Shown in pieces: positions 8,354 through 36,752 of a DNA stretch of 64,000 nucleotides. The translations under genes and the position numbers were made by a program. The notes beneath the pieces were generated by a model, which made no database searches, was not told where the DNA came from, and saw nothing but the letters and a program-made list of their open reading frames with translations. Numbering within the stretch: position 1 is the first letter of the stretch; each line of letters starts with the position of its first letter. Source of the stretch: a virus (Duplodnaviria; Caudoviricetes); the IMG/VR virus record IMGVR_UViG_3300033121_001564, positions 34,476 to 98,475 of that record; one strand, written 5' to 3'.

Positions 8354-8427
8354 GGGGAGGGTGGTGTGGCACGAGATCACGGCAAGCCGAGCCCGCCTGG
8401 ACCGACTGGATCGACGAGTGGGATGAG

Positions 8428-8622
8428 GTGTGGATCGGCGGGAGAGCCATCGAACCGGAGCGGGAGTTTCCGCCGTTTCATGTCTGCGTTGCCACGGTGG
8501 ACCGTGAGAGTGGCCACCTGAAGGTGTGGCCAATGGATGAGGGCGCCGTGGGTGCGGGTAAGGTGTGGTTTCGCTTCGACGGCGTGGTGACGTGTTTGTC
8601 GCTGTACTACCCAGAGAATTGA
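8428..8622 (+). CDS. Hypothetical protein (start uncertain)
   Basis: Protein-like frame also extends upstream of the GTG. Confidence 0.4.
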   Translation: MWIGGRAIEPEREFPPFHVCVATVDRESGHLKVWPMDEGAVGAGKVWFRFDGVVTCLSLYYPEN

Positions 8623-8631
8623 GGAGCCTTC

Positions 8632-9105
8632 ATGAACGCGACTACAAAGCCGCTGGTATCCGAATGTGGGAAATATCGCGCCACACGCCTGGGGCATTTG
8701 GAGTACCGCATTACGGATGCCTCCGGAGTTGTTGTTTGCGACAGGACCACTTTCTGGTCCAACAGGTCCACGAAGAGGAGAATTCGCTTCGTGACGGGGA
8801 GTGGGCCATTCGAGGCGACGTTCAGTTATCCGCGATACCCGAAAGGCTTCTACCGCAGATGGATCGAGTGCTGGGAGGTGAATGATAGCAGCAAACTGCT
8901 GCGTGCAATCGAGCGGGTTGGCGTGCGTGTGACGACGTTCGGGAAGCTCGGGATGACCTGTCACTACCTCCTGGGGTTCGTCGGCACGCCGGCACAACGG
9001 CAGGAAGTTGATGGTTTACTGGCGAAAAAGGGTCTGAGGTTCTCGACCAGGCAGAAGCCGGGGATGTGGGACATCGAGTATTGCACGGAAGGTATGAGGC
9101 AATGA
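8632..9105 (+). CDS. Hypothetical protein
   Basis: GAGGAG RBS; ATGA-coupled to the next gene. Confidence 0.65.
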   Translation: MNATTKPLVSECGKYRATRLGHLEYRITDASGVVVCDRTTFWSNRSTKRRIRFVTGSGPFEATFSYPRYPKGFYRRWIECWEVNDSSKLLRAIERVGVRVTTFGKLGMTCHYLLGFVGTPAQRQEVDGLLAKKGLRFSTRQKPGMWDIEYCTEGMRQ

Positions 9106-22153: not shown

Positions 22154-22860
22154 CCGCCGACGAGGAAAAGGCCGCACTGCTGCGTGCCGTGTGTGAGAGT
22201 CCGGGGGATGACCTGCCCCGGTTGGCGTACGCGGATCACTGCGAGGAGGCGGGGGAGTCCGTCGTCTCGAACTACATTCGTGCGTCGATCGAGGTGCACC
22301 ACTTTCCCGACGCGCCCGACTCCCTATCGCGATACGAACACGCATGGGAGTCGCTGCGTGCGTCCATCGACGTCAGACTTACCGATCACGTTCCGCACTG
22401 GATCAACGACGCGACTCGCACGAACGGGGTTGCCTGGGTTATGCGTCGCGGGTTTCTGGACACGATACTCTGTCCCCTCAGTTGGTTCTGGGGTCAGGGC
22501 GACGATCAGTTTTCGCGACTGTTTCGGACGTGCCCAGTCGTAGCGGTGAGAGTCCGCGACAAGGAGCCAGCCAGAAGGATGATCGCCACGACTCGCGGGG
22601 TTAGCGTCACCACCTTCCACCATTTCTGGAATGCGGAGGTGCCAGCGATAGTCCAGTTTTTCCAGGAGAGAGGGATAGGTCGCGAGGACTCGTCGCGTGC
22701 AAGATATATTCCTGAGGAACTCTTCCTCGATCCAGGCTGCGGGTTGAGTGACGGATCGGGGTCGCCGACCCTGTTCGACTCCAGAGAGGATGCCTTTGCC
22801 GGGCTCTCCCTCTGCCTCGTGAACCGTGGCCGCATGCTCGCCGGTCTGCCTCCGCTTTGA
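22150..22860 (+). CDS. TIGR02996 domain-containing protein
   Basis: EKAALLRAVCESPGDDLPRLAYADHCEEAGE...YIR, then RRGF. Confidence 0.88.
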   Translation: MTADEEKAALLRAVCESPGDDLPRLAYADHCEEAGESVVSNYIRASIEVHHFPDAPDSLSRYEHAWESLRASIDVRLTDHVPHWINDATRTNGVAWVMRRGFLDTILCPLSWFWGQGDDQFSRLFRTCPVVAVRVRDKEPARRMIATTRGVSVTTFHHFWNAEVPAIVQFFQERGIGREDSSRARYIPEELFLDPGCGLSDGSGSPTLFDSREDAFAGLSLCLVNRGRMLAGLPPL

Positions 22861-22906
22861 TCTCCCCCCTCCCCGCATGCGAAGATCCCCCGCTGGGGAG
22901 AGACGC

Positions 22907-24700
22907 ATGCATGCCCGAAACGGCCAACCTGTCCTGCTCGACCAGTACGGCAACCCCTACCGGAGGGACGGGAGTGCCCGCCCGGGGGGGATCGCCCTGC
23001 CGCACGGGCTGATGTTCGTCTCGAAGTACCAGGGGGGAGGGAACACCTATCTCCACCAGCTCTGGGACGAGGCGCTGAAGGCGGGCCGCGAGGAGGCCAT
23101 CGCCATGCGCCGCGACCTGCACCTGCGCGGGCTGCTGCAGGAGCGCATGCTGGCGGTTGCCTCGCTCCCCTGGCACCTCGAGGTCCCCGACGAGAAGGAC
23201 CCCTACCAGACGCGAGTCCGAGACGGCATGACCCGCCTGATGAAAGGCGTGCGGTCGTTCCGCCGGATGGTCTGGTGGTGGCTCGAGGCGATCTGGTACG
23301 GACGCTATGGCGTCCAGGTGGAATGGGAGTGGTGCGACTTCCACGACCACCCCAACGAGGCGCCAAAGGCCGAGACCAGCCTGCCGACCGGCCCCGCGTC
23401 GGCCGGGTCGTCCGCGGGCAAATTGCGGCGGGGCATCACGATCGCCCAGAGCTGGGGCATCAACGGCGACAAGATCGGGCACCAGTACGACCACACGCCC
23501 TATGTGCTGATGAACTCAGCCGATGTGAAGAACATCCCCGGTGCCGAGACGATCGTCACCTCCGTCGGCGGGCACGGGCTTTTACTCACGGGGGACTGGC
23601 TCGAGCGGATCCTGATCCACAAACACTGGCAGGAGGACGCGGACTTCTTCGACTCTTCGTCCGCGGAGGCGATCCACGGCGTCGGGTTGCGGTCGATTGC
23701 CTACTGGTTCTACTGGCTGAAGATGCAGTGGCTGGGGGACGTGACCGACTTCTTCGACCGCGTGGGCTTGGGTGTGACCATCTGGAAGTACCCCCGGGGA
23801 TCGGCGGAGGGGCTCGCGCAGGTCAAGGCCGCCGCGAACGCACAGAGCGAGCGGGCGCACATCTTCGTGCCCGTGGACCCCGACGATGTGAACAAGGCGG
23901 GCACGGGGATCGACCGCATGGAGGTCCCCACGAGTGGTGCGGATGCGCTGGTCCGACTGATCGAGTACGCGGACAAGATCATCGAGCGCTACTTCGTGGG
24001 CCAGGAAGCCAGTTCGTCGGGGAGCAGCTCGGGGCTCGGCAACGAGGCCAACGCCGCCTTCCAGATGGACACGAAGGCCAAGATCACGATGAGCGATGCC
24101 GCGCTGCTGGCGGAGACACTGACGGGCAGCGCGCGGGAGCCGGGGTTGCTCTCGATCGCCCAGAAGTATTCCTTCCCCGAGGCAGACTTCCCCGTCAGGT
24201 GGGTATTCGACGTCGAGCGCGCGGAGAGCGAGAAGAAGGTCCAGTCCGGCAAGACGATGGTGGAACTGGGCGTGGACATCAAGGCCGACGAGTTGCGCGC
24301 TGCTGCCGGGTTCAGCAAACCCGCGCAGGGCGACGAGCTGGTCAAGCCGCCGCAGCAACCAGGGGCGCCGGGCGCGCCGGGCGGGATGCCGGGAGCGCCG
24401 GGTGCCGACGGTGCGGATGTGGGACAGGACCCGCTGGCGGCACTCATGGGTGGAGGCGCGGGTCCCGGTGCCGAGGATGCCGGGCAACCCGGGGAGGAGC
24501 AGGCTCAGCCCGGTGCGGAGGAAGGGGCACCCGGGGAATCTGCGGAGCCCGTGCAGGCGGGGAACTTCCTGGAGGCGCTGCGACACTCTCGGGATCGGCT
24601 GGCTCGTGCTGTTCGGCACCTGCGGCAGCGTGGGCGCAGCGACCTTGCCGCGCAACTGGTGGCCGCGCACGGCCGGAAAGTCGGGAGGAAGGCACCGTGA
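22907..24700 (+). CDS. Portal protein (DUF935/Mu gp29-like)
   Basis: LLDQYGNP N-terminus, EAIWYG, GVGLR..AYW, Pro/Gly/acidic tail; position in head module. Confidence 0.8.
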   Translation: MHARNGQPVLLDQYGNPYRRDGSARPGGIALPHGLMFVSKYQGGGNTYLHQLWDEALKAGREEAIAMRRDLHLRGLLQERMLAVASLPWHLEVPDEKDPYQTRVRDGMTRLMKGVRSFRRMVWWWLEAIWYGRYGVQVEWEWCDFHDHPNEAPKAETSLPTGPASAGSSAGKLRRGITIAQSWGINGDKIGHQYDHTPYVLMNSADVKNIPGAETIVTSVGGHGLLLTGDWLERILIHKHWQEDADFFDSSSAEAIHGVGLRSIAYWFYWLKMQWLGDVTDFFDRVGLGVTIWKYPRGSAEGLAQVKAAANAQSERAHIFVPVDPDDVNKAGTGIDRMEVPTSGADALVRLIEYADKIIERYFVGQEASSSGSSSGLGNEANAAFQMDTKAKITMSDAALLAETLTGSAREPGLLSIAQKYSFPEADFPVRWVFDVERAESEKKVQSGKTMVELGVDIKADELRAAAGFSKPAQGDELVKPPQQPGAPGAPGGMPGAPGADGADVGQDPLAALMGGGAGPGAEDAGQPGEEQAQPGAEEGAPGESAEPVQAGNFLEALRHSRDRLARAVRHLRQRGRSDLAAQLVAAHGRKVGRKAP

Positions 24701-27501
24701 ACGATCACCTCGCCGACGCCGTCCTGGACATGATCCTGGGCGCCGACCACGACGACCAGGCACTGTCCGCTCTCGACGACTTCGAGGCGATGGTTCCCCT
24801 GACGCCCGCGCCGGCACCGGCACCCGTGGCTCCGCCGCCGGTCGCCTCCCCGCCGCATCTGGAGACCGTCGAGCGTTTCGCCCGACGACTCGAACGCACC
24901 TCCCGCCGGCTCGACCGTGCCCTCCGTTATGCCTGGGAGAACAAGGGTAACGCTGGCACCTCCAAGCGGGGATTGCCCCTCTACAAGTGGCACTGGGACG
25001 GCTCGGACGGCAAACGTCAGCGGGACCGGATCCAGAGTGTCGAGCCCGGCAAGGGTCGGCAGCCCGCCGCAGAGGGGCAGAAGCCCGCACCAGCAAAGCC
25101 CGCGAAGCCCCCGAAGCAGACCATCGACGCGGTTCACGATGAGCTGTCCCAACTGAACCGCGAGGACGTCACCGAGGAGCACGTCGCCAGGCTCACGGCG
25201 GGGATGCTCACCCTGACGAAGCAGCAGTTGCACGAACTGCGTGGGCGCCTCGGGCTTCCCGAGCGTGGGACGAAGTCTCTGGCCAAGAGCCCGCTGGCGC
25301 AGCGGATCCTCGAGCATGTGCGGGGCGGGGGCAAACAGGAGCCAGCCGGGAAGCCCGAGGCGAAGCCGGCGACTGGGCGTACGCCGAAGGGCCCCGACGT
25401 GGACACTCTGGGCAAGATCGACCGTGTTCTGGAAGGATACGCCAAAGGCGAGGGCGACCCGGAGTATTTCGGGAAGTTGCTCGAACGGTTAGGCGTCGCC
25501 GATCTTCGCACGGTGGCGAAGAAGGTCGAGGCGCTGGCGTCGCGGACGAAGGAGGGTCTGCGGAAGGGGATCACGGAGAAGGTGGCGGCACTGGCGCCAG
25601 CGGGACAGGCGGAGGCAACCACTCCGGTAACCACCCCGGCAACCGAAACGGGGACGCCGACCAGTGGGGCAGGCACGCGACCCGCGACGGCGCAGGGCGG
25701 CACCCCCAGGACTTCCGGGAAACCCACGACGCACTACGACGAGCAGTCTGCACTGTCTCGCATGTTTGCCGCCGAGCCCAGGCTCGAGCGGATGCCGACG
25801 ACCCCCGTGACCATCATGGACATGATGCACGGGCTGCCACCGCAGCAGAAGGAGAGCCTGTCGAAGGCGCTCTTCGACCTGGCGGATCGCGGAATCGTCG
25901 CCCTGCATCGGCAGGATAACCTCAACCTCCTGCGCCCCGAAGAACGGGCGAACCTGCTCCACGACCCAGAGTCGGGGATGTACTTCACCGCCGTCGCCTT
26001 TCGCGACCCGGACTCGGCCCCGAAGCCCGATGCCAGGGCGGTGGCACGCGAAAAGGGGACGATCGTCGAAAGGCCCGCGCCGCCCGCGCCGCCAGCGCCG
26101 ACGACGGCTGAAATGACCCCCAGGGAGCCGCCCGCACCGCCCAGGATGCTCCAGCGCAGCGAGGCTGCGGCGATCGAAAAGCAGTTCGGGATGGGGGCAA
26201 GGGATTCCGGGGTGGATCACGCGCTAGCGGCAAGGATCGGCTTCGTGGCCGACGCCGTCGCCGCAGGGAAGCAACCGGACGCCGGGCTCGTCAATCAGTT
26301 GCAGGCGTGGGTCAAGGGTGCCGACACCGACCCCTACGGCTACGGACAGTTTGGCTCGAAGGAAGCCTACGAGGCCGCGACGAGTCTCCTCCATACGGCA
26401 AGGAACCTGGCGCAATCGCAGCCATCCCCAGGGGCCGGCGCATTGTCCGGAAGCGAAGCGACTGCGTCCGCAAGTCCTCCACCTACTCCAGCCCCCGCCG
26501 GCCGCAAGGGCACCATCTACGGTCTGCCCAACGCCGTCTACGACCAGCTCTACGAGCAACTCCAGAAGGGCGACCGTGCGGGCGCTGAGAATGCGCTGCG
26601 CGAGGCTGCATCACGGTACGGGATACACGACGCCAACACCAAGCAGGTTGCACGGGCGTTGATGCAGCAACTGAAGGAGGAGCAGGCAGGCCCCGCGAAA
26701 CCGACGGTTCCCGCCTCCACCCCGAAGTCCGCCCCATCCGTCTCCGGGCTGGCCACGGCCTTTCGCGACCTGGACAGCAAGGGATTCAACCAGGTCTCTC
26801 TGGACAAACTCGCCGAGAAGACTGGCTACACCCCGGAGCAACTCCACGGCGTGGTCCGGGACCTGATCAAGAAGGGTGTACTCTCCGGGCAGGGTCCGGA
26901 GGGACGCCACGGGCTCTCTGATCGCGAGCGGCGGGCGATGATCCCGTCCCAGGGACCGCACGATCCGGGTGTGCTGTACGTCAGCGTGCGGCCGGGGATG
27001 GAGCGGGAGTTCGAGAGGCTGACAGGTCAGGGGGCAGGTACTGTTGCGACCCCAACTCCAGTCACGCCAGCACCTTCGAGCCCGCAACGTAAGCCAACTG
27101 CGCAGCCCAGGAAGCCCGAGTCGCCCACAACTGGTGCCACGCCGCCCACATTCGGCATCCCGGATCTGGACAACGGGTTACGGTCCGCTCGCGGACCAGC
27201 AGAGGTGATCCCTCTGTTGTACCGCTCTGCTGGAACGATTGGTCTGGTCCAGAGCGCCACGGACCGGAAGACGTCGCGGGAGGTGCTCGAATACGTCGAT
27301 CGGGTGTTGCCGACGTTGCGAGCGCCCGAGGTCGCTGCCGTGGGCAAGGCGATGGGGTTCCCGAAGGCCAATGCGGCATTCGTCCGCGAGGCGATCGAGG
27401 CCCGCATCGGAGGCACGATTCGATCACGCATGACCGAGGGTGGCGCTGCCGAGAAGGCTGCCGCCCGCAGGGATCTCGAAAAGCTCGGATGGAAGGGGTA
27501 A
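24697..27501 (+). CDS. Large (~934 aa) modular protein, probable virion internal protein
   Basis: GTG start overlapping the portal stop after GGAGG; acidic leader; small domains joined by Pro/Ala/Thr linkers. Confidence 0.75.
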   Translation: MNDHLADAVLDMILGADHDDQALSALDDFEAMVPLTPAPAPAPVAPPPVASPPHLETVERFARRLERTSRRLDRALRYAWENKGNAGTSKRGLPLYKWHWDGSDGKRQRDRIQSVEPGKGRQPAAEGQKPAPAKPAKPPKQTIDAVHDELSQLNREDVTEEHVARLTAGMLTLTKQQLHELRGRLGLPERGTKSLAKSPLAQRILEHVRGGGKQEPAGKPEAKPATGRTPKGPDVDTLGKIDRVLEGYAKGEGDPEYFGKLLERLGVADLRTVAKKVEALASRTKEGLRKGITEKVAALAPAGQAEATTPVTTPATETGTPTSGAGTRPATAQGGTPRTSGKPTTHYDEQSALSRMFAAEPRLERMPTTPVTIMDMMHGLPPQQKESLSKALFDLADRGIVALHRQDNLNLLRPEERANLLHDPESGMYFTAVAFRDPDSAPKPDARAVAREKGTIVERPAPPAPPAPTTAEMTPREPPAPPRMLQRSEAAAIEKQFGMGARDSGVDHALAARIGFVADAVAAGKQPDAGLVNQLQAWVKGADTDPYGYGQFGSKEAYEAATSLLHTARNLAQSQPSPGAGALSGSEATASASPPPTPAPAGRKGTIYGLPNAVYDQLYEQLQKGDRAGAENALREAASRYGIHDANTKQVARALMQQLKEEQAGPAKPTVPASTPKSAPSVSGLATAFRDLDSKGFNQVSLDKLAEKTGYTPEQLHGVVRDLIKKGVLSGQGPEGRHGLSDRERRAMIPSQGPHDPGVLYVSVRPGMEREFERLTGQGAGTVATPTPVTPAPSSPQRKPTAQPRKPESPTTGATPPTFGIPDLDNGLRSARGPAEVIPLLYRSAGTIGLVQSATDRKTSREVLEYVDRVLPTLRAPEVAAVGKAMGFPKANAAFVREAIEARIGGTIRSRMTEGGAAEKAAARRDLEKLGWKG

Positions 27502-27503
27502 CG

Positions 27504-30500
27504 ATGCCTGCACATGCAACCGACAACTTCGCCGCCGCCAAGCTCGAGGCGATGCTCGCCACGATCATGGACGCCGCCGGCGGCACCGACGAGGAACTGG
27601 ACGCGGCACGGCACCAGGCCGTGTCGATCGCCAGGCTCCGCGAGGACGACCTGGCTGGCGAGCCCGACAGCGAGCCCGACAGCGGTCCCGCCGGGTCCGT
27701 CGTCCGGCACCTCCGCACCGGCTGGGCGGACAGGTACGAGGCGCCACGGGTGCCCGCCGGGCAGAAGGTTTCGGGACAATCCGGTGGGCAGTGGATCCAG
27801 GTCCAGGCGCTGGCGGAGTTCTATGCTGGGCTGTTCAACGACATGGTCGAGGCTGGGTCCCCGCCCGAGGAACAGCAGGTGGACGACGCCTGCGCCGACC
27901 TCGAGCCCTACGGCTGGACGCTGGAGGAAGAAGACGACGAGTGGTCCGCCGTGGAACTGGAGGGAGACGAGGACGACGAGGAGGTCGGTGACGAGACTGG
28001 CGAGGAAGGGAACTCCTGGCACTGGCACTACAAGCGGGTCAAGCGGGGCACGCCGGGCGCGATCGAGCGCACCGACAAGCGTGGGCGGTCGTACTGGGTG
28101 GACAAGCTGCCCGACCCGAAGGCGACCAGCGAGGAGGCTCGCAAGCGGCGGGAGGATCGCGGCCCGGTCGATCGGGAGAAACTCCAGGAGCGGTTGAACG
28201 CCTACCGGGACAAGCACAAGGTGCTCCGCTCCAACGAGCGCGCGGCCCGTGCCTCGGTGGGGCTCCTGCACCGTCACCACGGCGAGCAGGCGCTGCACCG
28301 GGTAGAGGAGCTTGCCGACGCGGCGGAGCGGGCGTACAACGCCATCCCGGAGGGCAGGGCACACGAGGGGTTGCGAAACCGGTTGGGCAAGAAACTGGCG
28401 ATCCTGCACCGGATGGCGGAGCTGGCGGGGACCAAGTTCGGCTCGATGCGGAAGGGGGCTGGCGATGGACTGGAAGGCAAGGGCAAACGCGGCAAAAGCG
28501 GACGGGTACTACCCGAACAACCCCTGGGAGAGGGCGCTCCGTCGGCACCTGACGGCGGAACAACCGGCGATGGTGCGGGAACTGGAGCAGACGAAGGACC
28601 TGGAAGCGTACCTGGCGGTGCGGGTCTGGGGGGCGATGGAACTGGCGGACCGGCTGGAGGAGCAGGGGACGCCGCCGGACGTGGCGAGGGCGCTGGCGAT
28701 GGACGACCTGTACCGGACGGAGCCGCCGGCGCCGGAGCCCTGGGAGAAGGAGGAGGCGAGGGAAGCGGCGATGGGAGCGGCGGAGCAACTCCTCACGAGC
28801 GGTCTCTTGCGGAACCGCCGAGCGTAGAAAACCCGACGGATTGCGCCGCCGGGAACTGGCGGTATGACGACGCGGCCTTCGCCTTTGGCGGTGCGAAGAC
28901 CAAGTTCAAGAACAACATCGAGGCGATCAAGACGCTCCGGAACATCGAGGCGGAGGGGCGGACCGCCGCCACGCCCGAGGAGCAGGCCATCCTGTCGAAG
29001 TTCGTCGGCTGGGGGCAGTTCAAGAATCTGTTCGAGTACCGCTACGGCGACGACTGGCAGAAGGAGCGAGAGCTGCTGCGGAGCGTACTGTCGGGAGACG
29101 AGTACGCGCAGGCGGAGAGCAGCACCCGGTCGAAGCCTGGCAGTCAGGACTACGCTTCCGCGGCCGGGTCGATCCTCAACGCTCACTACACCCACCCCGA
29201 CGTGGTCAAGGCGCACTGGGAAATGGCCCAGCGCCTGGGCTTCAAGGGTGGGCGGTTCCTGGAGACGTCGGCCGGAATCGGCTACTATCTGGGCATGATG
29301 CCTGCGGACGTCGCCGGGCACACCCGCGCCACCGCGGTGGAACTGGACAGCCTCACGGGCAAGATGCTCAAACTCCTCTACCCGTCGGCGAACGTCAACG
29401 TCACCGGGTTCGAGAAGTTCCAGGTGCCGGACAACTTCTACGACCTCGTGGCGTCCAATGTGCCGTTCGGCGACTACCGCGTACATGACTCGACGTCGGA
29501 CGGCGCCAGGTACAACAAGCACAAGGCCAACATCCACGACTACTTCTTCCTGAAGTCCCTGGATAAGGTGCGGCCCGGCGGGCTGGTGATGCACATCACC
29601 AGCGCCGGGACGATGGACAAACTCGACCCGCGCATCCGCAAGGAGTTGGAGAGCAAGGGAGAACTGGTATCCGCGATCCGGTTCCCGGGGGGCGCGCATA
29701 AGGAGAACGCGGGCACGGAAGTCGTCACCGACATGCTCATCTTCCGGAAGAAGCATCCGGGGGAGCAGGCGGTCGATGCCAACGTGACGCCGAAGGAGGC
29801 GGAGCCGGAGCAGCCCGGCTTCACCGGCACGACCGTGGACGCGCTGGGCCGGCTCTACCACTGGGTGAACGGCAAGCGCGTGCCCGGCCCGAAGTGGGAC
29901 GACGTGGTCACCATCCCCGACCCGGCGGGCGGGGACCCCATCCCGGTCAACCGCTACTTCGCCGAGCACCCCGAGCAGGTGCTGGGCACGCACGACCGCA
30001 CGGGCAAGATGTACCACGGCGAGTCCAAGAACGTGACCAGGGGCGAGGATTACGAGGAAAGGCTGAAGGCGTGCATCGGCCGGCTGCCCGAGGGGTTACT
30101 GGGCCGTTCGGCGCCCACGAATGAGCGGTTCACCCCCGAGGCTGCGCCGGCGCCTGGGGATGTCAAGGAGGGCGGCTACCAGGTCAAGGGCGGCAAGTTG
30201 TACGTCCGCGAAAAGGGGGTCATGATCCCCCAGGATGTCAACGCCAAGGACTTGGCCCGCATCCAGGGGCAACTCGGGGTTCGCGACGCACTGCGCGCCT
30301 GCCTCAACAAGCAGCTGAAGGGCGAGGACGCCTCGGCCGAGCGCAAGGCGCTGAATGATGCCTATGACGCCTTCGTTGCCAAACACGGGTTCCTCAACGA
30401 CCGTGCGAACAAGCGCGCGTTCCGCTTCGACCCGGACTCCCCGGTGCTCCTGGCGCTCGAAAAGTACGATCCCGCCACGAAGGCCGCGGAGAAGGCTGAC

Positions 30501-33500
30501 GTCTTCCGCAAGGACACCGTGCGTCCGGCAGCCAAGGTCGAGAAGGCCGACGACGTCGGGCAGGCGCTGAGCCTCTCCCTGCACGAGTTTGGCAGGCTCG
30601 ATATCGACCACATGGCAAAACTGCTGGGCACCACGCCCGACGAGGTGGGCAAACTCCTGTCGGCTCGCGGGCTGGCGTACTTCGACCCGTCGGCGGGGTG
30701 GCAACCGGCCGACCAGTACCTGTCTGGCAATGTTCGGAGGAAGCTCGTGATGGCGCGGGCAGCCGCCGCGACCGATCCCAAGTTCCAGGCCAACGTCGAG
30801 GCACTGGAAAAAGTCCAGCCAGAAGATATCGCCTACCAGGACATCAGCGTGAAGATGGGCACCCACTGGGTCCCGGCGTCCGACCACGCGGCGTTCGCGG
30901 CAGCCCTCCTGGGCGGGAGTCCGGAAGATTTTGCTATCCACTACATCCCCGAGTCCGCCGAGTGGGTGGCGGACTTCGCGAGAACCAGTAACGCCAAGTG
31001 GATTTCGCAGAACCAGCAGGCCAAGACTGTCTGGGCCGTCCACGACAAGAAGTTCATGGACATCTTCGACGCGGCCATGAACAACACCCGGTTGGTGGTC
31101 TGGCAGAAGGACGAGAAGGGCAAGACGATCAGGGACGCCAACGACAAGCCGATCCTCGACAGCAAGAAGACCGAGGACGTCATGGCCAAGGTCAAGGACA
31201 TGCAGGACTTCTTCAAGGAGTGGGTCTGGGAAGACGATGAGCGTCGCGACCGACTGCACCGGCACTACAACGACAACTTCAACAACATCCGCAACATCGC
31301 CTATAACGGGTCGCACCTGACGTTCCCGGGCATGAACCCCGCCATCCAACTCAGGGACTACCAGAAGAACTTCGTCTGGCAGGTGGTGACCACCGGGACC
31401 GGGCTGGCTGCACACGAGGTCGGGACCGGCAAGGCGCAGCCCCTCGACGCTCAGATCCTGACGCCGGCCGGCTACGTCCGGATGGGCGATCTTTCCGTGG
31501 GGGACGCGGTGATCGGCGTCGATGGCAAACCGACCATGGTCGAGGCGATCTTCCCGCAGGGCGAGAAGGAAGTGTTCCGTGTCGTGTTCAGTGACGGTGC
31601 GGTCACGGAATGTTGCGACGAACATCTGTGGTTGACCCAGACCTACCACGAGCGGAACTACGCCATTGCGGCCCGAAAGGCTGGCAAGTCGCACTGGACG
31701 TGCGACAAGCCCAAAGTCCGCAGCCTGGCAGAGATCCGCAAGACGCTGATCGATTCGAGGCTGGGCGGTGTCAAGAACCACTCGATCCCGATGGTGCGGG
31801 CGGTCCAGTTCGACGCCCAACCGGTCCCGATCGACCCTTACACCCTGGGTGTGCTCCTGGGGGACGGGTGCATGACGGCCAACTGTGCCAGGATCACGGC
31901 GTCACGCGAGGATGGCGCGTTCCTCGTGGGGCAGGTGGCCGCAGCGCTGCCCGGAGGCATGGAGGTTCGCGAGCAACCCAGCAGTTCTCGCCGGTGCCCG
32001 TCGTTCGCCATCGTTCGACGCAAGCAGTCGGGGTTTGGGGCCGATCGCAAGCCCAACCCGGTCGTACATTCCCTGGCCAGTATGGGACTCCAGGGCTGCA
32101 AGTCGCACCAGAAGTTCGTGCCAGAATGCTACAAGATCAACACGCCCGAGGTGCGTCTCGCGGTACTCCAGGGACTGCTCGACACGGACGGGTCGATCAG
32201 TTCGCGCAAGGAACGCTCGGTCACGTTCTACACCACGTCGGATCGTCTGGCAGACGATGTGGTCTTTCTGACTCGCTCGCTCGGTGGCGTGGCGCGGCGA
32301 AGACTGAAGAAGGCTCCCACCTACACCCACAAAGGCGAGATCCGCACGGGGCGTCCCTGTCACGTTTTGTGCCTCAGTCTGCCGCCTGACGTACAACCGT
32401 TCCGGTTGGAACGAAAGGCGTCACTGATCGTTCCCAGGACCAAGTACCAGCCGACCCGCTACATCGTCGCGGTCGAGCCTGTGGGCAAGAAGCCCTGCCA
32501 GTGCATCCGCGTGAGTAGCCCCGATCATCTCTACGTCACCGATGACTTCGTGGTGACGCACAACACCTTCTCTATGATTGCTTCAGCTATGGAGTTACGT
32601 CGTATGGGGCTGGCGAAGAAGCCGGCCATTGCCTGCCTCAAGGCGAACATCGAAGCCATCACCAACGACACCCTGAAGCTCTACCCGGGGGCGAAGATCC
32701 TGTCCACCGTGGATATGTTCGACGCCAAGAAGCGCAAGGAGACGATTGCCAGGATCGCCACCGGCGACTACGACCTCGTGCTCCTGACGCACGACCACCT
32801 GGACCTGTTGCAGATGCGTCCGGACGTGGTCAAGAAGTTCATCGGCGAGGAACTGGCCGAGGTCGAAGCCGCCATCGAGGCTAGCAACGAGGGCAACACC
32901 ACCAAGAAGAAGAGTGGGGTTGCCAGTCAGCTCGAGAAGGCCAAGAAGCGGCTCGAGGCAGCCCTCGAGGACGCCCTGGACCCGACCGAGAAGGACGACG
33001 CCGTCTTCTTCGACGAGTTGGGCATCGACCAACTGTTCGTGGACGAGGCCCACAACTACAAGAGTTTGCCGTGCTACACCCGACAGGGCCGTGTCAAGGG
33101 TGTGCCCCAGGGTCGCAGCGAGAAGGCAACGGCCATGCAGATGCGGGCCCGCTGGCTGCAGGAGCAGAACGGGGGGCGAGGGGTGGTGTTCGCCACGGGC
33201 ACGCCGGTTGCGAACACGATGGGCGAACTGTTCAACATGCAACGCTACCTCCAGCCCGCCGACATGAAGGAGCGCGGGGTGGACAAGTTCGACGCCTGGG
33301 CGCAGACTTTTGGCGAAACCGAGACTCGCAACGAGTTCACGGTCACCGGCGAGTACAAGCCGGTTGCGCGCTTCCGCAACTTCGTCAACCTTCCCGAACT
33401 CAAGGCGCTCGCCGCTCAGATCATGGACGTCCGCAGGGCCGACGACCTGAAGAACCCTGACGGCACCCCGGCCGTCGTTCGTCCCAAGCGCAAGGACGAT

Positions 33501-36500
33501 GTGGTCGTCGCCCCGCGAACGGAGTCGATGGATGCGCTCATGGCCGACCTGCAGGAGCGGGCCAAGAGGATCAAGGGCAAGGCCGAGAAGGGCGCCGACA
33601 ACATGCTCAAGATCTGCACCGAGGGCCGCAAGGGTTCCATCGATATGCGTCTGCTGGACGCGAACGCGCCGGACGACCCGCACTCGAAGGCCAACCAGAT
33701 GGTCCAGAGGGTGACGGCCACGTTCCGGGACAACCCCGGCAAGTCGCAACTGATCTTCTGCGACACCGGGGTCAACCCGATGGAGAACGGGTTCCACCTG
33801 TACCCGGACATCATCAACAAGCTGGTGGCCGGCGGCATCCCCCGGGAGAAGATCGCCGACTTCTCGAAGCTGGAGGGCGCTAAGAAAGAGGCCGCGATGG
33901 AGTCCATGCGCAACGGCGAGATCCTCGTCGGCATCGGCTCCACGGACAAACTGGGGACCGGAGTCAACGTGCAGGATCACCTCCTGGCCCTGCACCATCT
34001 CGACGTGCCCTGGGTGCCGGCAGACGTCGAGCAGCGTGACGGCCGCGGGTGGCGGCACGGTAACACCAACGAAGGCGTGGGCATCGTCCGCTACGTCTCC
34101 GAGGGATCGCTGGACCAGACGTTCTGGCAGATCATCGCCAACAAGACGAAGTTTATTCGCCAGGTGATCGACCGCGACTACAAGGACCGGGCCGCCCGGG
34201 AGGAGGACACCGAGGAGTTGAGCCCGGAGCAACTCATGGCCGCGGCGAGCGGCGACCCCCGGATCATGCGCAAGGTCGATCTCGACGACGAGGTGCGGCA
34301 ACTCACCCGGGCTCGTGACCGACACGAAAGGGAGCAGACGAGCTTCAAGGACAAGATCAAAGCCTTCGAGCGCAACCTGAAACGGTTTGAGGATTCGGTC
34401 GAGGGTCTACACAAGGACGTCGCGACCCTCGAGGCCAACCCCGAGTTCACTTTCACTGTCGGGGGTAAGAGTTTTTCCGACCGGAAGGAGGCGAAGGAGT
34501 CGTTCGACCAGTGGAAGAAGGACAATGCCGAGTTCATCTCCACCGGGCAGGGCGGCTACGAGTACGGCTACAACTACGGTCCCAAGAAGGTCGGCGCCTA
34601 CCGCGGGCTGGACGTGCTCGTGGACAAGAGCAAATTCTACCTGAAGGGTCCCGGTGGGGACATGCACGCCACCGGCGATAGTCTGCAGTCGATCGAGACG
34701 ATCGCCCGGAACCTTGAGGGGAATGCCAAGAAGCGTGAGGCAGAGATCCAGGCCGGTAAGGCGGATGTCGAGCGTCTGCGAGGATTGATCGGCAAGTCGT
34801 TCGCCAAGGCCGACGAGTTGGCCCGCAAGAGCCAGGAGGCGAAGGAACTCGATGAGGAACTTGCCAAGAAGGACGGGAAGACAGCACCAGCGGCAGCCCC
34901 GGCGAAGGCCGGCAAGTCGTCCATCCCGGGCGACGACCTCGACCGCGTCTACGACGTCCTGAAGTCGGGCAAGGTGAAGGAGGCGAGCGCCCAGTTGCGG
35001 GAGTTGGGCGAGAAGCACGGGCTTGACGAGGCGGAACTGAAGCGTGTCGCCAGCACGGTGCAGGAGATGTACCACAGCGAGCGTCGGCACGAGGCGGAGT
35101 CCACTGCGACCACCCGGCCGACGTCCTCCCAGGCTCCCCGGGCCCCAGTCGCCCCCAACCCCCCCGTCGAGGGCATGACCCCCGCCCGCAAGGAGGCGAT
35201 CCACGAGGCCCTGCAACAGCTCCACGCAGCCAACGCCGACGGCGCCCGGGAGATCAACGGCGTCGGGTTCAACCAGTACGATTCCTCGTTCGGTAAGCAA
35301 CTGGCGGAACAGTCCTCGCTGACCGACCGTCAGGCGGAAGCGGCGGCGCGGATGCTGGGGAAGTACAAGAGGCAACTGGGGGAGGATCTGCACAAGCGAG
35401 TGGTGACGCCGGAGAAGGGGGAGAAGGAGCCGGCAGTGGAGGCGCCAGTTTCGTCTTCTCAGGACCCGATGACTGCTCATGGCGAAGCCGGAACTGGAAC
35501 CGTTGAGGAGATCAAAAGGCGATTGAACGCACGCGGCGAGGTGCTCAACGGGCTCCGTGGGTCGGCGGAGGCGAAGGGGACCGAGAACAGGATGTCGCTC
35601 GTGGAGCGCCGTGAGCAACTCATTCGCGACAACCGAAAAGATTTGCAGGCTCTGGAGTTGGCGGAGCGGACAGAACGGGCGTCTCCTGCAACACCGACGC
35701 AGGCCAGGCCGGACGTTGTGGAGAAGGCTCCTGCGTCAGTCGCTCCGGCGAAGGCGTCGGCGAAAGTCGGAGGCGTCCCGGCGCACGAGATGACGAGAGA
35801 CGCCTACAGCGACGCCATGTCGGAGCGGTCGGGCGAGTACGAGGACACCGACGTCGGGATTCGGCACCCCGACGGGGAGTTGACATACGACCCGTCCAAA
35901 CTTCCTGGGCCTTCCGATGACGTCCGCCGCATGCACCGGCCACTGGTGGCCGGTGACGCTTCCGGGCGCAAGCGGCTCGAGGCAATGACCCGGGTGACGG
36001 ACGCCAGGACTGAGCTTTCTGACCAGATTCAGAAGGCGATCGAGTCTGGACGCGATGGGGGCGGGTCTCTCGCGCCGGGGTCGCGGGCGCACGCGGCGAT
36101 GGAGAAGTATCTGGACGCCGTCCGGAAGTTCTCTGGCGCGTCGTCATCAGCGGCCGAGTGGGCAGTCCCCGCCGAAGACGCCATCCGCAAGCACTACGAC
36201 GGCGTCGCCAAGGAGTTCGACTCCGGCCGCCTCGTCAGCGACCCACACCGTGAGGCCGTGAGGTCAGCCCTGACCGCCGGCAAGAAAGTCCCGCCCGAGG
36301 TTCTAAAAGACTACCCGGACCTTGCGGGCAAGGCTACGCAACCTCCCACCCCGTCGCCATCAGTCCCCGCCTCTCCCCCCAACGTCTCCACGAAGTCCGT
36401 CTCGACCTCGCGCGGACAGCGGCACGTTCACGGCTTCGAGCCGTCGCAGGAGTTCTGGAAGGCACGCGACGCGGGCAAACTCCCGTCCAACGTGACCGTT

Positions 36501-36752
36501 CGCAGAAACAACAGCACGGGTCGGTGGGAGGCGTCCATCTGGGGCGCCGACCCCGACGAGGTGCGACAGACCGCCGCGAAACTCCAGGAGATCGGCGCCG
36601 CGAAGTTCTCCCGATCCTCGTTCGTGATCCGTGCCGTGTCAGCGCGAGACTCCCGACCCGTCCAGTACGCCCGGCTTGCCGATCGCGCTCGACTGGCGGG
36701 CGACATGCACTCCGCGAGGATCTACGCCAGGCAGGCGCGCGGCGAGTTCTAG
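27504..36752 (+). CDS. Giant DarB-like N6-adenine methyltransferase-SNF2 helicase with intein
   Basis: ETSAGIG and NVPF methyltransferase motifs; HEVGTGK/T, DEAH, ATGTP, QRDGRGWR helicase motifs. Confidence 0.9.
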   Translation: MPAHATDNFAAAKLEAMLATIMDAAGGTDEELDAARHQAVSIARLREDDLAGEPDSEPDSGPAGSVVRHLRTGWADRYEAPRVPAGQKVSGQSGGQWIQVQALAEFYAGLFNDMVEAGSPPEEQQVDDACADLEPYGWTLEEEDDEWSAVELEGDEDDEEVGDETGEEGNSWHWHYKRVKRGTPGAIERTDKRGRSYWVDKLPDPKATSEEARKRREDRGPVDREKLQERLNAYRDKHKVLRSNERAARASVGLLHRHHGEQALHRVEELADAAERAYNAIPEGRAHEGLRNRLGKKLAILHRMAELAGTKFGSMRKGAGDGLEGKGKRGKSGRVLPEQPLGEGAPSAPDGGTTGDGAGTGADEGPGSVPGGAGLGGDGTGGPAGGAGDAAGRGEGAGDGRPVPDGAAGAGALGEGGGEGSGDGSGGATPHERSLAEPPSVENPTDCAAGNWRYDDAAFAFGGAKTKFKNNIEAIKTLRNIEAEGRTAATPEEQAILSKFVGWGQFKNLFEYRYGDDWQKERELLRSVLSGDEYAQAESSTRSKPGSQDYASAAGSILNAHYTHPDVVKAHWEMAQRLGFKGGRFLETSAGIGYYLGMMPADVAGHTRATAVELDSLTGKMLKLLYPSANVNVTGFEKFQVPDNFYDLVASNVPFGDYRVHDSTSDGARYNKHKANIHDYFFLKSLDKVRPGGLVMHITSAGTMDKLDPRIRKELESKGELVSAIRFPGGAHKENAGTEVVTDMLIFRKKHPGEQAVDANVTPKEAEPEQPGFTGTTVDALGRLYHWVNGKRVPGPKWDDVVTIPDPAGGDPIPVNRYFAEHPEQVLGTHDRTGKMYHGESKNVTRGEDYEERLKACIGRLPEGLLGRSAPTNERFTPEAAPAPGDVKEGGYQVKGGKLYVREKGVMIPQDVNAKDLARIQGQLGVRDALRACLNKQLKGEDASAERKALNDAYDAFVAKHGFLNDRANKRAFRFDPDSPVLLALEKYDPATKAAEKADVFRKDTVRPAAKVEKADDVGQALSLSLHEFGRLDIDHMAKLLGTTPDEVGKLLSARGLAYFDPSAGWQPADQYLSGNVRRKLVMARAAAATDPKFQANVEALEKVQPEDIAYQDISVKMGTHWVPASDHAAFAAALLGGSPEDFAIHYIPESAEWVADFARTSNAKWISQNQQAKTVWAVHDKKFMDIFDAAMNNTRLVVWQKDEKGKTIRDANDKPILDSKKTEDVMAKVKDMQDFFKEWVWEDDERRDRLHRHYNDNFNNIRNIAYNGSHLTFPGMNPAIQLRDYQKNFVWQVVTTGTGLAAHEVGTGKAQPLDAQILTPAGYVRMGDLSVGDAVIGVDGKPTMVEAIFPQGEKEVFRVVFSDGAVTECCDEHLWLTQTYHERNYAIAARKAGKSHWTCDKPKVRSLAEIRKTLIDSRLGGVKNHSIPMVRAVQFDAQPVPIDPYTLGVLLGDGCMTANCARITASREDGAFLVGQVAAALPGGMEVREQPSSSRRCPSFAIVRRKQSGFGADRKPNPVVHSLASMGLQGCKSHQKFVPECYKINTPEVRLAVLQGLLDTDGSISSRKERSVTFYTTSDRLADDVVFLTRSLGGVARRRLKKAPTYTHKGEIRTGRPCHVLCLSLPPDVQPFRLERKASLIVPRTKYQPTRYIVAVEPVGKKPCQCIRVSSPDHLYVTDDFVVTHNTFSMIASAMELRRMGLAKKPAIACLKANIEAITNDTLKLYPGAKILSTVDMFDAKKRKETIARIATGDYDLVLLTHDHLDLLQMRPDVVKKFIGEELAEVEAAIEASNEGNTTKKKSGVASQLEKAKKRLEAALEDALDPTEKDDAVFFDELGIDQLFVDEAHNYKSLPCYTRQGRVKGVPQGRSEKATAMQMRARWLQEQNGGRGVVFATGTPVANTMGELFNMQRYLQPADMKERGVDKFDAWAQTFGETETRNEFTVTGEYKPVARFRNFVNLPELKALAAQIMDVRRADDLKNPDGTPAVVRPKRKDDVVVAPRTESMDALMADLQERAKRIKGKAEKGADNMLKICTEGRKGSIDMRLLDANAPDDPHSKANQMVQRVTATFRDNPGKSQLIFCDTGVNPMENGFHLYPDIINKLVAGGIPREKIADFSKLEGAKKEAAMESMRNGEILVGIGSTDKLGTGVNVQDHLLALHHLDVPWVPADVEQRDGRGWRHGNTNEGVGIVRYVSEGSLDQTFWQIIANKTKFIRQVIDRDYKDRAAREEDTEELSPEQLMAAASGDPRIMRKVDLDDEVRQLTRARDRHEREQTSFKDKIKAFERNLKRFEDSVEGLHKDVATLEANPEFTFTVGGKSFSDRKEAKESFDQWKKDNAEFISTGQGGYEYGYNYGPKKVGAYRGLDVLVDKSKFYLKGPGGDMHATGDSLQSIETIARNLEGNAKKREAEIQAGKADVERLRGLIGKSFAKADELARKSQEAKELDEELAKKDGKTAPAAAPAKAGKSSIPGDDLDRVYDVLKSGKVKEASAQLRELGEKHGLDEAELKRVASTVQEMYHSERRHEAESTATTRPTSSQAPRAPVAPNPPVEGMTPARKEAIHEALQQLHAANADGAREINGVGFNQYDSSFGKQLAEQSSLTDRQAEAAARMLGKYKRQLGEDLHKRVVTPEKGEKEPAVEAPVSSSQDPMTAHGEAGTGTVEEIKRRLNARGEVLNGLRGSAEAKGTENRMSLVERREQLIRDNRKDLQALELAERTERASPATPTQARPDVVEKAPASVAPAKASAKVGGVPAHEMTRDAYSDAMSERSGEYEDTDVGIRHPDGELTYDPSKLPGPSDDVRRMHRPLVAGDASGRKRLEAMTRVTDARTELSDQIQKAIESGRDGGGSLAPGSRAHAAMEKYLDAVRKFSGASSSAAEWAVPAEDAIRKHYDGVAKEFDSGRLVSDPHREAVRSALTAGKKVPPEVLKDYPDLAGKATQPPTPSPSVPASPPNVSTKSVSTSRGQRHVHGFEPSQEFWKARDAGKLPSNVTVRRNNSTGRWEASIWGADPDEVRQTAAKLQEIGAAKFSRSSFVIRAVSARDSRPVQYARLADRARLAGDMHSARIYARQARGEF
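28465..28827 (+). CDS. Probable nested out-of-frame gene (120 aa, TnpV-like helical protein)
   Basis: ATG after GAAGGGGG; globular-looking translation while the host frame is Gly-rich low complexity over the same span. Confidence 0.6.
   Translation: MDWKARANAAKADGYYPNNPWERALRRHLTAEQPAMVRELEQTKDLEAYLAVRVWGAMELADRLEEQGTPPDVARALAMDDLYRTEPPAPEPWEKEEAREAAMGAAEQLLTSGLLRNRRA
31434..32564 (+). mobile_element. Class 3 intein with LAGLIDADG homing endonuclease (377 aa)
   Basis: Ala1 start AQPLDA, EHLW, CQCI, VVTHN/T; LGVLLGDG and LQGLLDTDG; splits Walker A GK/T. Confidence 0.9.

Follow-up and report, generated by a model that had tools for sequence, protein, structure and literature searches.

The giant DarB-like open reading frame of this phage raises the question of whether a second, unannotated gene is read in another frame within its interdomain linker. 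The window analysed is a stretch of 64,000 nt from a complete 98-kb virus record (IMGVR_UViG_3300033121_001564, positions 34,476 to 98,475). The first-pass annotation proposed that a 120-aa helical protein, reminiscent of TnpV, is encoded out of frame in the region preceding the methyltransferase (MTase) domain. We confirmed the presence of this ORF, hereafter referred to as Y, and our analyses indicate that it is very probably a real gene within a gene (probability of about 0.8), although internal initiation is inferred from the sequence only and there is no direct evidence of translation of either product. The features of the locus are as follows.

27489..36752 (+), giant DarB-like polyvalent ORF (3087 aa), with an N-terminal helical domain, a predicted disordered linker, an N6-adenine MTase, an SF2 helicase split by an intein and a long C-terminal region
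27489..28436 (+), N-terminal domain of the giant protein (frame 0)
28437..28838 (+), frame-0 Gly/Ala/Asp/Glu linker, predicted to be disordered, the inferred overprinted reading of the Y gene
28450..28458 (+), Shine-Dalgarno-like GGAAGGGGG, 6 nt upstream of the Y start
28464..28466 (+), frame-0 Asp codon GAT, which supplies the AT of the ATG of Y
28465..28827 (+), Y, nested +1-frame gene (120 aa plus stop) for a predicted six-helix, acidic, TnpV/DUF1896-like protein (P0001)
28824..28826 (+), frame-0 Val codon GTA, which supplies the TA of the TAG stop of Y
28830..31433 (+), start of the conserved MTase module (NPTDCAAGNW motif at 28830) up to helicase motif I

Y extends from the ATG at 28465 to the TAG at 28825-28827, one frame ahead of the giant ORF. 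The giant frame is a DarB-like methylase-helicase: more than 6,400 homologues were identified, many of them named 'N12 class adenine-specific DNA methylase' and carrying PF28553/28554/28555, Helicase_C was detected, and the tblastn hits in GenBank phages fell on features annotated 'DarB-like antirestriction'. The N-terminal domain is colinear with the linker and the MTase in the giant homologues P0005 (57% identity), P0010 and P0008, and a homologous linker precedes the NPTDxxAGNW motif in about 50 of 120 relatives. In the AlphaFold2 (AF2) model of the segment encoded by 28200-30329, the helices of the N-terminal domain end at residue 82 (nt 28445), and residues 80-213 have a pLDDT of about 25 and no secondary structure.

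The openness of the +1 frame did not exceed chance, because a G/A/D/E/P linker rarely has T at codon position 2: when the giant-frame codons were resampled, the +1 frame remained open in all four lineages compared (see below) in 32% of trials. However, the composition of the third codon positions did exceed chance. The GC3 of frame 0 is about 0.9 in the N-terminal domain, falls to 0.45-0.52 over the linker and returns to 0.93 in the MTase module, whereas that of the +1 frame rises to 0.83-0.93, with the switch located exactly over 28470-28740. The other low-GC3 stretches of the giant ORF (35379-35768) and of one related locus (L005) hold no conserved alternative ORF.

Three other independent phage loci (L002, L004 and L005; MTase about 50% identical) showed the same GC3 switch and carry a homologous +1 ORF with its own start codon. 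The four Y proteins are 35-44% identical, with invariant positions W3 K4 G14 Y15 P17 N19 W21 E22 L25 R26 H28 L29 P34 Y49 L50 G68 A74. Resampling of the synonymous codons of the giant frame could not reproduce this conservation: the identity of Y was 0.396, against an expected 0.255 +/- 0.017 (z 8.1), and in a test in which each trial was realigned the score was 1102, against 489 +/- 53 (z 11.5), whereas control blocks from the MTase gave z values of 1.1-3.0. Furthermore, the +1 frame was better conserved than the main frame (summed alignment score of 1102 against 760). Conversely, when the codons of Y were resampled, frame 0 remained open in all four lineages in only 3 of 2000 trials; the Gly content was 0.283 against 0.200, and the frame-0 identity gave a z of 4.3. 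The fourfold sites of Y are strongly biased to G (G:C of 51:8, 35:1, 40:18 and 58:13, against about 1:1 in the MTase region; p 2e-8, 2e-9, 9e-3 and 1e-10), yielding Gly/Ala/Asp/Glu codons in frame 0. Both frames are therefore constrained, although only four DNA lineages could be compared, these were treated as independent, and the codon usage of the null models was taken from the neighboring MTase region. Contigs from four riverine or viral runs, placed at 80% likeness, did not cover the Y region, and no population variants were obtained.

The start and stop of Y are built from infrequent frame-0 codons. GAT is the minority Asp codon (18 of 82), and GTA is a rare Val codon (4 of 80) that plays the same role in L002 (used 1 of 62) and L004 (1 of 73). 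In all four loci a start codon lies 1-6 codons before the conserved W-K, and an SD-like core is present in 3 of 4, against 18% of the internal ATG/GTG codons of the giant ORF; however, the SD preceding the L004 start is weak and L005 uses GTG. The nesting may also extend to further lineages, since the Y homologue P0242 is codon-compatible with the linker of the giant protein P0014 (100% of 83 codons) and P0211 with P0025 (98% of 125 codons), whereas the 99th percentile of the background is 59%.

Single-sequence searches with P0001 yielded nothing in a word search of 5.8 billion proteins, in IMG/VR, in GenBank phages (tblastn) or in plasmids, and P0001 alone matched no Pfam (E<=0.1) or PHROG family. 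Degenerate DNA motif scans of viral and metagenome collections and a scan of genome contigs with the Y alignment were also negative, and the metagenome scan returned only a copy of L005. By contrast, a profile of the four Y proteins, searched against 1.84 billion proteins, retrieved 258 clusters (111 at E<=1e-10), mostly of 80-150 aa, most of which begin M-x(1-5)-W; one hit, P0244 (2252 aa, 7 stretches), is an ankyrin-repeat protein and a false positive. The family is under-annotated, since gene callers forbid such overlaps: none of the ten members tested matches a PHROG family, and only a few of the 104 scanned give weak Pfam matches. The Y domain also occurs in frame in other proteins, at the N-termini of P0167, P0243 and P0273 and at the C-terminus of orf33 of Sinorhizobium phage PBC5 (E 2.9e-6).

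The resemblance to TnpV (PF14198), which the first-pass annotation had noted, holds at the profile level. The Y profile retrieved P0272 (E 5e-8), which scores 41.5 bits against Pfam TnpV (cut-off 27), and hhalign of the Y family against P0272 gave a probability of 97.3% (E 1.8e-11, 67 columns); a word search with P0272 returned only P0272 itself. Ten of the 104 family members gave sub-threshold TnpV hits (best E 1.5e-4). Like Y, TnpV of Tn4451/Tn4453 and Tn6104-6106 is a small helical protein of about 110-120 aa found only on mobile elements, and its function is only postulated to be Xis-like (PMC3158075). However, Y has an additional N-terminal W-K...GYxPxNxWE helix pair and, in long forms, a C-terminal acidic helix, and it is nested out of frame in a phage gene rather than being a separate transposon gene.

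AF2 folded Y with high confidence from a 104-sequence alignment (pLDDT 95.5, pTM 0.74), predicting six helices. The only solved chain with Z>=5, of 48,161 compared, was the DUF1896 (PF08989) protein PG0816 of Porphyromonas gingivalis (PDB 2APL; Z 7.7, rmsd 3.0 A over 65 residues, model residues 12-85; next hit 4.9), a protein of unknown function, and Foldseek aligned 64 columns at an rmsd of 1.8 A. This Z is modest, within the range that helical models reach by chance, and 2APL is longer (149 aa). 2APL was also the only non-repeat protein in a sequence-profile search of the PDB, but without significance (E 0.49); the hits to designer PPR proteins in that search were sums of tiny repeat matches and were rejected. 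P0001 had no hit to PF08989 (cut-off 25 bits), six of the 104 members gave sub-threshold hits, and a search of the whole phage genome with this family found nothing. The ESM Atlas gave only unnamed clusters scoring below 0.9.

We therefore favor a true same-strand dual-coding region from which two proteins are made. Ribosomes starting at 27489 would read through in frame 0 and produce the 3087-aa DarB-like virion protein, in which this DNA encodes only an unstructured tether between the N-terminal module and the methylase, whereas others would start at the internal SD and ATG at 28465 and produce Y. We infer that Y starts at its own ATG, that Y is the older frame, and that the linker arose when upstream modules were fused to the methylase-helicase by reading through the Y gene in the -1 frame, with PBC5 showing the uncoupled state. 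Y may act together with the methylase-helicase, for example as an accessory, assembly or regulatory subunit made from the same late mRNA. This is the weakest step. The functions of TnpV and DUF1896 are unknown, and the proposed role rests only on gene position and domain context.

The best-surviving alternative, although unlikely, is that Y is not started internally, but that a fraction of ribosomes translating the giant ORF shift +1 just before 28465, producing a truncated N-domain-Y fusion ending at the TAG, while unshifted ribosomes make the full protein. In PBC5 the Y-like domain is the in-frame C-terminus of the upstream 2185-aa protein, P0145 has an N-domain-like region and Y in one frame, and the Y frame is open for 10-53 codons upstream of the start in the four loci; an SD-like element might also stimulate +1 shifting, as probably occurs in prfB. 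However, no slippery or stop-codon shift motif is shared by the four loci in the 20-75 nt before the Y start, a start codon sits within 6 codons of the conserved W-K in all four loci, most family members begin M-x(1-5)-W, and in L004 the Y frame has a stop only 10 codons before the ATG.

It is much less likely that the giant ORF is an annotation artefact, with three separate genes (N-domain, Y and methylase-helicase) and a linker that is open by chance and never translated. The frame-0 GC3 is non-coding-like here (about 0.47), the frame one base upstream of a G/C-ending gene is often open, and stand-alone methylase-helicases do exist, since P0058 starts 12 aa before the NPTD motif. Nevertheless, the N-domain ORF has no stop, there is no ATG, GTG or TTG in frame 0 between the Y stop and the conserved domain, and the Y-only simulations, the G bias at the synonymous sites of Y and the excess frame-0 identity argue against this possibility. 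Similarly improbable is that Y is a silent relic or a compositional shadow of the linker. The openness of the +1 frame and its helical, E/L/R/A-rich appearance are indeed automatic consequences of a Gly-rich linker, but this reading is contradicted by the conservation of frame-0 third positions so as to keep the residues of Y, the better conservation of Y than of the linker, the size of the family with its in-frame domains in other proteins, the confident AF2 model and the homology to a bona fide TnpV. Finally, although the window comes from a metagenome assembly, it is very unlikely that indels created an apparent frame change, as the two-frame layout occurs in four independent assemblies and is implied by two further protein pairs from other sources, and Y has its own start and stop codons.

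A broader reading, which is possible but which we consider slightly less likely than not, is that the Gly-rich linker preceding the methylase domain of many DarB-like polyvalent proteins is the overprinted reading of an older tnpV-like gene, that upstream effector modules became fused to the methylase-helicase by translation through tnpV in the -1 frame, and that selection has since kept both readings in phages. This would mean that the TnpV-like protein is an obligate, co-expressed partner of the injected methylase-helicase, and would make the long-unknown function of TnpV directly testable. The nesting ties these function-unknown proteins of mobile elements physically to DarB-like antirestriction methylase-helicases, and it may offer an example of how an interdomain linker can arise by overprinting during gene fusion.

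Long, conserved, same-strand dual-coding regions are rare and often disputed in bacteria and their viruses, and in this one both single-frame explanations can be rejected from sequence alone. Complete small genes within a larger gene on the same strand, with their own start, appear to be represented by Rz1 in the lambda Rz gene and by comS in srfAB of Bacillus subtilis, the latter host also being a giant multidomain gene. Here, however, the host frame is a predicted disordered interdomain linker, the nested gene appears to be the older, folded one, and the arrangement is conserved across a wide family of methylase-helicase genes, although no product has been demonstrated. Literature searches found no description of a gene nested in DarB-like genes.

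The giant ORF has the MTase-SF2 helicase dyad described for DarB-like polyvalent proteins (PMC5512222), of which DarB of phage P1 is a head-packaged antirestriction methylase-helicase, and it lies two genes after the portal gene. However, P1 DarB starts directly with the MTase module, and no Y-like ORF was found in any frame in the first 50 kb of P1, which include darB and ulx; Ulx was rejected as an analogue, as ulx lies downstream of darB. In PBC5 (AF448724; orf33/orf23) the Y-like domain lies immediately upstream of the DarB-like methylase-helicase gene and one frame ahead of it, but the coding signature switches frame at its stop, so there is no long dual-coding stretch. The top structural hit of Y in BFVD, Q8W6J4_2, is probably a PBC5 protein.

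The 98,475-bp IMG/VR virus record, of which the window is the 3' 64 kb, is rated complete. A 3087-codon ORF in the window lies two genes after the portal gene, and its product has a helical N-terminal domain followed by a Gly/Ala/Asp/Glu stretch, an N6-adenine methylase and, last, an SF2 helicase interrupted by a LAGLIDADG intein. The features considered here are as follows.

22826-24700, portal gene (phrog_113, E 1.6e-25)
23275-27501, plus strand, 1408-aa ORF overlapping the portal gene in another frame up to about 24700
27489-36752, plus strand, 3087-codon ORF (frame 0)
27489-28436, plus strand, N-terminal domain of the giant protein
28437-28838, plus strand, frame-0 Gly/Ala/Asp/Glu stretch, predicted to be disordered
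28465-28827, plus strand, ORF of 120 residues in the +1 frame, here called Y (protein P0001)
28830, plus strand, beginning of the methylase at the motif NPTDCAAGNW
31434-32564, plus strand, intein of about 377 aa (residues about 1316-1692 of the giant protein)

The giant protein has thousands of relatives, which many sources name 'N12 class adenine-specific DNA methylase' and GenBank phage records name 'DarB-like antirestriction'. It therefore belongs to the DarB-like methylase-helicase polyvalent proteins (PMC5512222). The intein has a homing-endonuclease core (PF14528, E 1e-7; Hom_end) and interrupts helicase motif I, with GTGK followed by AQPLD at one junction and VVTHN followed by TFSMIASAMELRR at the other. 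Relatives read GTGKTxxMIASAMELRR without it, although several relatives also carry PF14528, and its first residue appears to be Ala rather than Cys or Ser. The 1408-aa ORF upstream has low GC3 (down to 0.33) in its own frame up to about 24700. Its real start is probably GTG 24697, preceded by GGGAGGAAGG, giving a 934-aa protein, and the long ORF call is a high-GC artefact.

The first-pass annotation proposed a probable gene nested out of frame in the giant ORF, and the observation is accurate: in the +1 frame, ATG 28465 to TAG 28827 encodes 120 residues, and GGAAGGGGG lies 6 nt upstream of the ATG. However, a linker rich in G/A/D/E/P almost never has T at codon position 2, so the +1 frame cannot acquire stops, and its codons (GNG, CNG, ANG) give an E/L/R/A/M-rich, helical-looking peptide. 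In our simulations the +1 frame stayed open in all four lineages in 32% of trials, and neither its openness nor the amphipathic appearance remarked on in the first-pass annotation has any value as evidence. The real anomaly is composition. Frame-0 GC3 is about 0.9 everywhere except at 28470-28740, where it falls to 0.45-0.52, whereas the +1 frame shows the normal 0.75/0.47/0.9 pattern of a gene.

Frame 0 is a real, conserved reading. The related giant proteins P0005, P0010 and P0008 share the N-terminal domain, the linker and the methylase colinearly, and a similar linker of about 110 aa precedes the NPTD motif in about 50 of the 120 best relatives, whatever lies upstream. No ATG, GTG or TTG exists in frame 0 between the Y stop and the conserved methylase start. 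AF2 predicted the frame-0 peptide (nt 28437-28838) to be fully disordered (pLDDT about 25), between well-predicted domains. The N-terminal domain (...HHGEQALHRVEEL...LRNRLGKKLAILHRM) has no Pfam match. It recurs in relatives (P0005, P0010, P0008, P0028, P0034 and P0023) both directly before the linker and more than 1000 residues away from the methylase, so it behaves as a mobile module.

The +1 frame is also conserved, and better than frame 0. An alignment-driven scan of IMG/VR gave four useful loci, of which L002 and L003 are near-identical and L004 and L005 are independent. Their methylase is about 50% identical to that of the window. In each locus, frame-0 GC3 collapses over the linker and the +1 frame encodes a clear homologue of Y, with an identity of 35-44% and invariant residues including W3 K4 G14 Y15 P17 N19 W21 E22 L25 R26 H28 L29 P34 Y49 L50 G68 A74. 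Each has a start codon 1-6 codons before the W-K (ATG three times, GTG once), and three have an SD-like core, against 18% of internal ATG/GTG in the giant ORF.

We first tested the null hypothesis that only frame 0 is selected, by resampling frame-0 synonymous codons from each locus's own usage. Y identity in the resampled sequences was 0.255 +/- 0.017 (maximum 0.308 of 2000 trials), against 0.396 observed (z 8.1). Because those alignment columns were optimised on Y, the test was repeated with free local alignment, and the summed score was 489 +/- 53 against 1102 observed (z 11.5), the +1 score exceeding the frame-0 score (760). Four methylase control blocks gave z values of 1.1-3.0, with the +1 score at about half that of frame 0. 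We then tested the converse null hypothesis, that only Y is selected, by resampling Y's synonymous codons. Frame 0 stayed open in all four lineages in 3 of 2000 trials, the expected Gly content was 0.200 against 0.283 observed, and frame-0 identity gave z 4.3. At Y's fourfold sites, G outnumbers C by 51:8, 35:1, 40:18 and 58:13, whereas in the adjoining methylase G is about equal to C (p 2e-8 to 9e-3), and this is what is needed to give G-initial (Gly/Ala/Asp/Glu) codons in frame 0. Furthermore, Y's ATG and stop are built from frame-0 codons that are otherwise avoided (GAT, 18 of 82; GTA, 4 of 80, 1 of 62 and 1 of 73; CGT, 1 of 66). Within the four DNA lineages compared, both frames therefore constrain each other.

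Y is a member of a large protein family. A profile of the four Y sequences, run against 1.84 billion representatives, found 258 clusters (111 at E<=1e-10), nearly all of 80-150 aa and matched end to end, most of them beginning M-x(1-5)-W. The family is acidic (median pI 4.6), and with a 104-sequence alignment AF2 gave a six-helix model at pLDDT 95.5 and pTM 0.74. The PHROGs search yielded nothing, and neither did Pfam for P0001. Ten of 104 members gave sub-threshold TnpV hits and six gave DUF1896 hits. However, one profile hit, P0272, passes Pfam's TnpV cut-off at 41.5 bits and aligns to the family profile with 97.3% hhalign probability. Against 48,161 PDB representatives, the only chain with Z>=5 was the DUF1896 protein 2APL (Z 7.7, 65 residues), which was also picked geometrically by Foldseek and, weakly, by the PDB sequence profile; this Z is within the range that helical models reach by chance, and a relationship to DUF1896 remains tentative. 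The resemblance to TnpV that the first-pass annotation had put forward is thus borne out at superfamily level.

The same domain was found in other arrangements. In phage PBC5 (AF448724), the Y-like domain (E 2.9e-6) is the in-frame C-terminus of the 2185-aa orf33, the methylase-helicase follows in the -1 frame, and the coding signature switches at the orf33 stop; this is the uncoupled layout. In this locus (8400-9100), the annotated start of orf23, the DNA methylase (9091), lies downstream of the point at which homology to the window's methylase begins (9001), and GC3 indicates that this frame is coding from about 8430, right after the orf33 stop, which adds an N-terminal domain (FGPILHGYEGNW...). 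The orf23 gene is probably annotated too short. Among the proteins carrying Y, P0145 has an N-domain-like region and Y in one frame, and P0167, P0243 and P0273 carry Y at the N-terminus of proteins with zeta-toxin-like or Ntox46 domains, modules that related giant proteins carry upstream of the methylase. A codon-compatibility test on protein sequences alone showed that the Y homologues P0242 and P0211 can be read from the same DNA as the linkers of the giant proteins P0014 and P0025 (100% of 83 and 98% of 125 codons, against a background 99th percentile of 59%), which adds two further nested lineages. P1 DarB has neither linker nor Y.

Thus, two overlapping readings are both under selection, one of them predicted to be folded and assigned, at profile level, to the TnpV superfamily and, tentatively, related to DUF1896, and the other a predicted disordered tether. 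In the absence of expression data, we infer that Y starts at its own SD and ATG on the late mRNA that also encodes the giant protein. Y may be the older frame, since it has a normal codon pattern, a predicted fold and a wide family, and the linker would be the overprinted one, created when upstream modules were fused to the methylase-helicase by reading through Y. It is possible that Y works with the polyvalent protein as an accessory, assembly or regulatory factor, but this is a guess from position alone, and TnpV itself has only a postulated Xis-like role (PMC3158075). Embedded out-of-frame genes seem to have precedents in Rz1 within Rz and comS within srfAB, and TnpV is a known family, but we found no paper describing a gene nested in DarB-like genes, and the arrangement is apparently unpublished.

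The alternative that survives best, although it is unlikely, is a +1 frameshift producing an N-domain-Y fusion. PBC5 and P0145 favour this possibility, whereas the lack of a shared shift motif and the start codon hugging the conserved N-terminus count against it. A layout of three genes with an untranslated linker is contradicted by the rejection of the Y-only null hypothesis and by the missing stop and start. The suggestion that Y is a compositional shadow or a relic is contradicted by the rejection of the frame-0-only null hypothesis, by the family and by the predicted fold. Assembly error is excluded by recurrence in independent assemblies.

In the multidomain relatives P0167, P0226, P0243 and P0273, the Y domain is followed by a conserved short motif, SLQPGTTKxxNGVxYxLNxxHRWxR, after which comes a zeta-toxin-like P-loop domain or Ntox46, and P0167 has two Y-like domains in tandem. 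Many long Y homologues (for example P0125, P0141, P0147, P0161 and P0164) end in tails such as ...PPRTTPRT or ...RKTPPI, which fit the +1 reading of the frame-0 motif EPPTPENPTD. This suggests that they too overlap the start of a methylase domain, with Y's stop often made by a rare NTA codon in frame 0.
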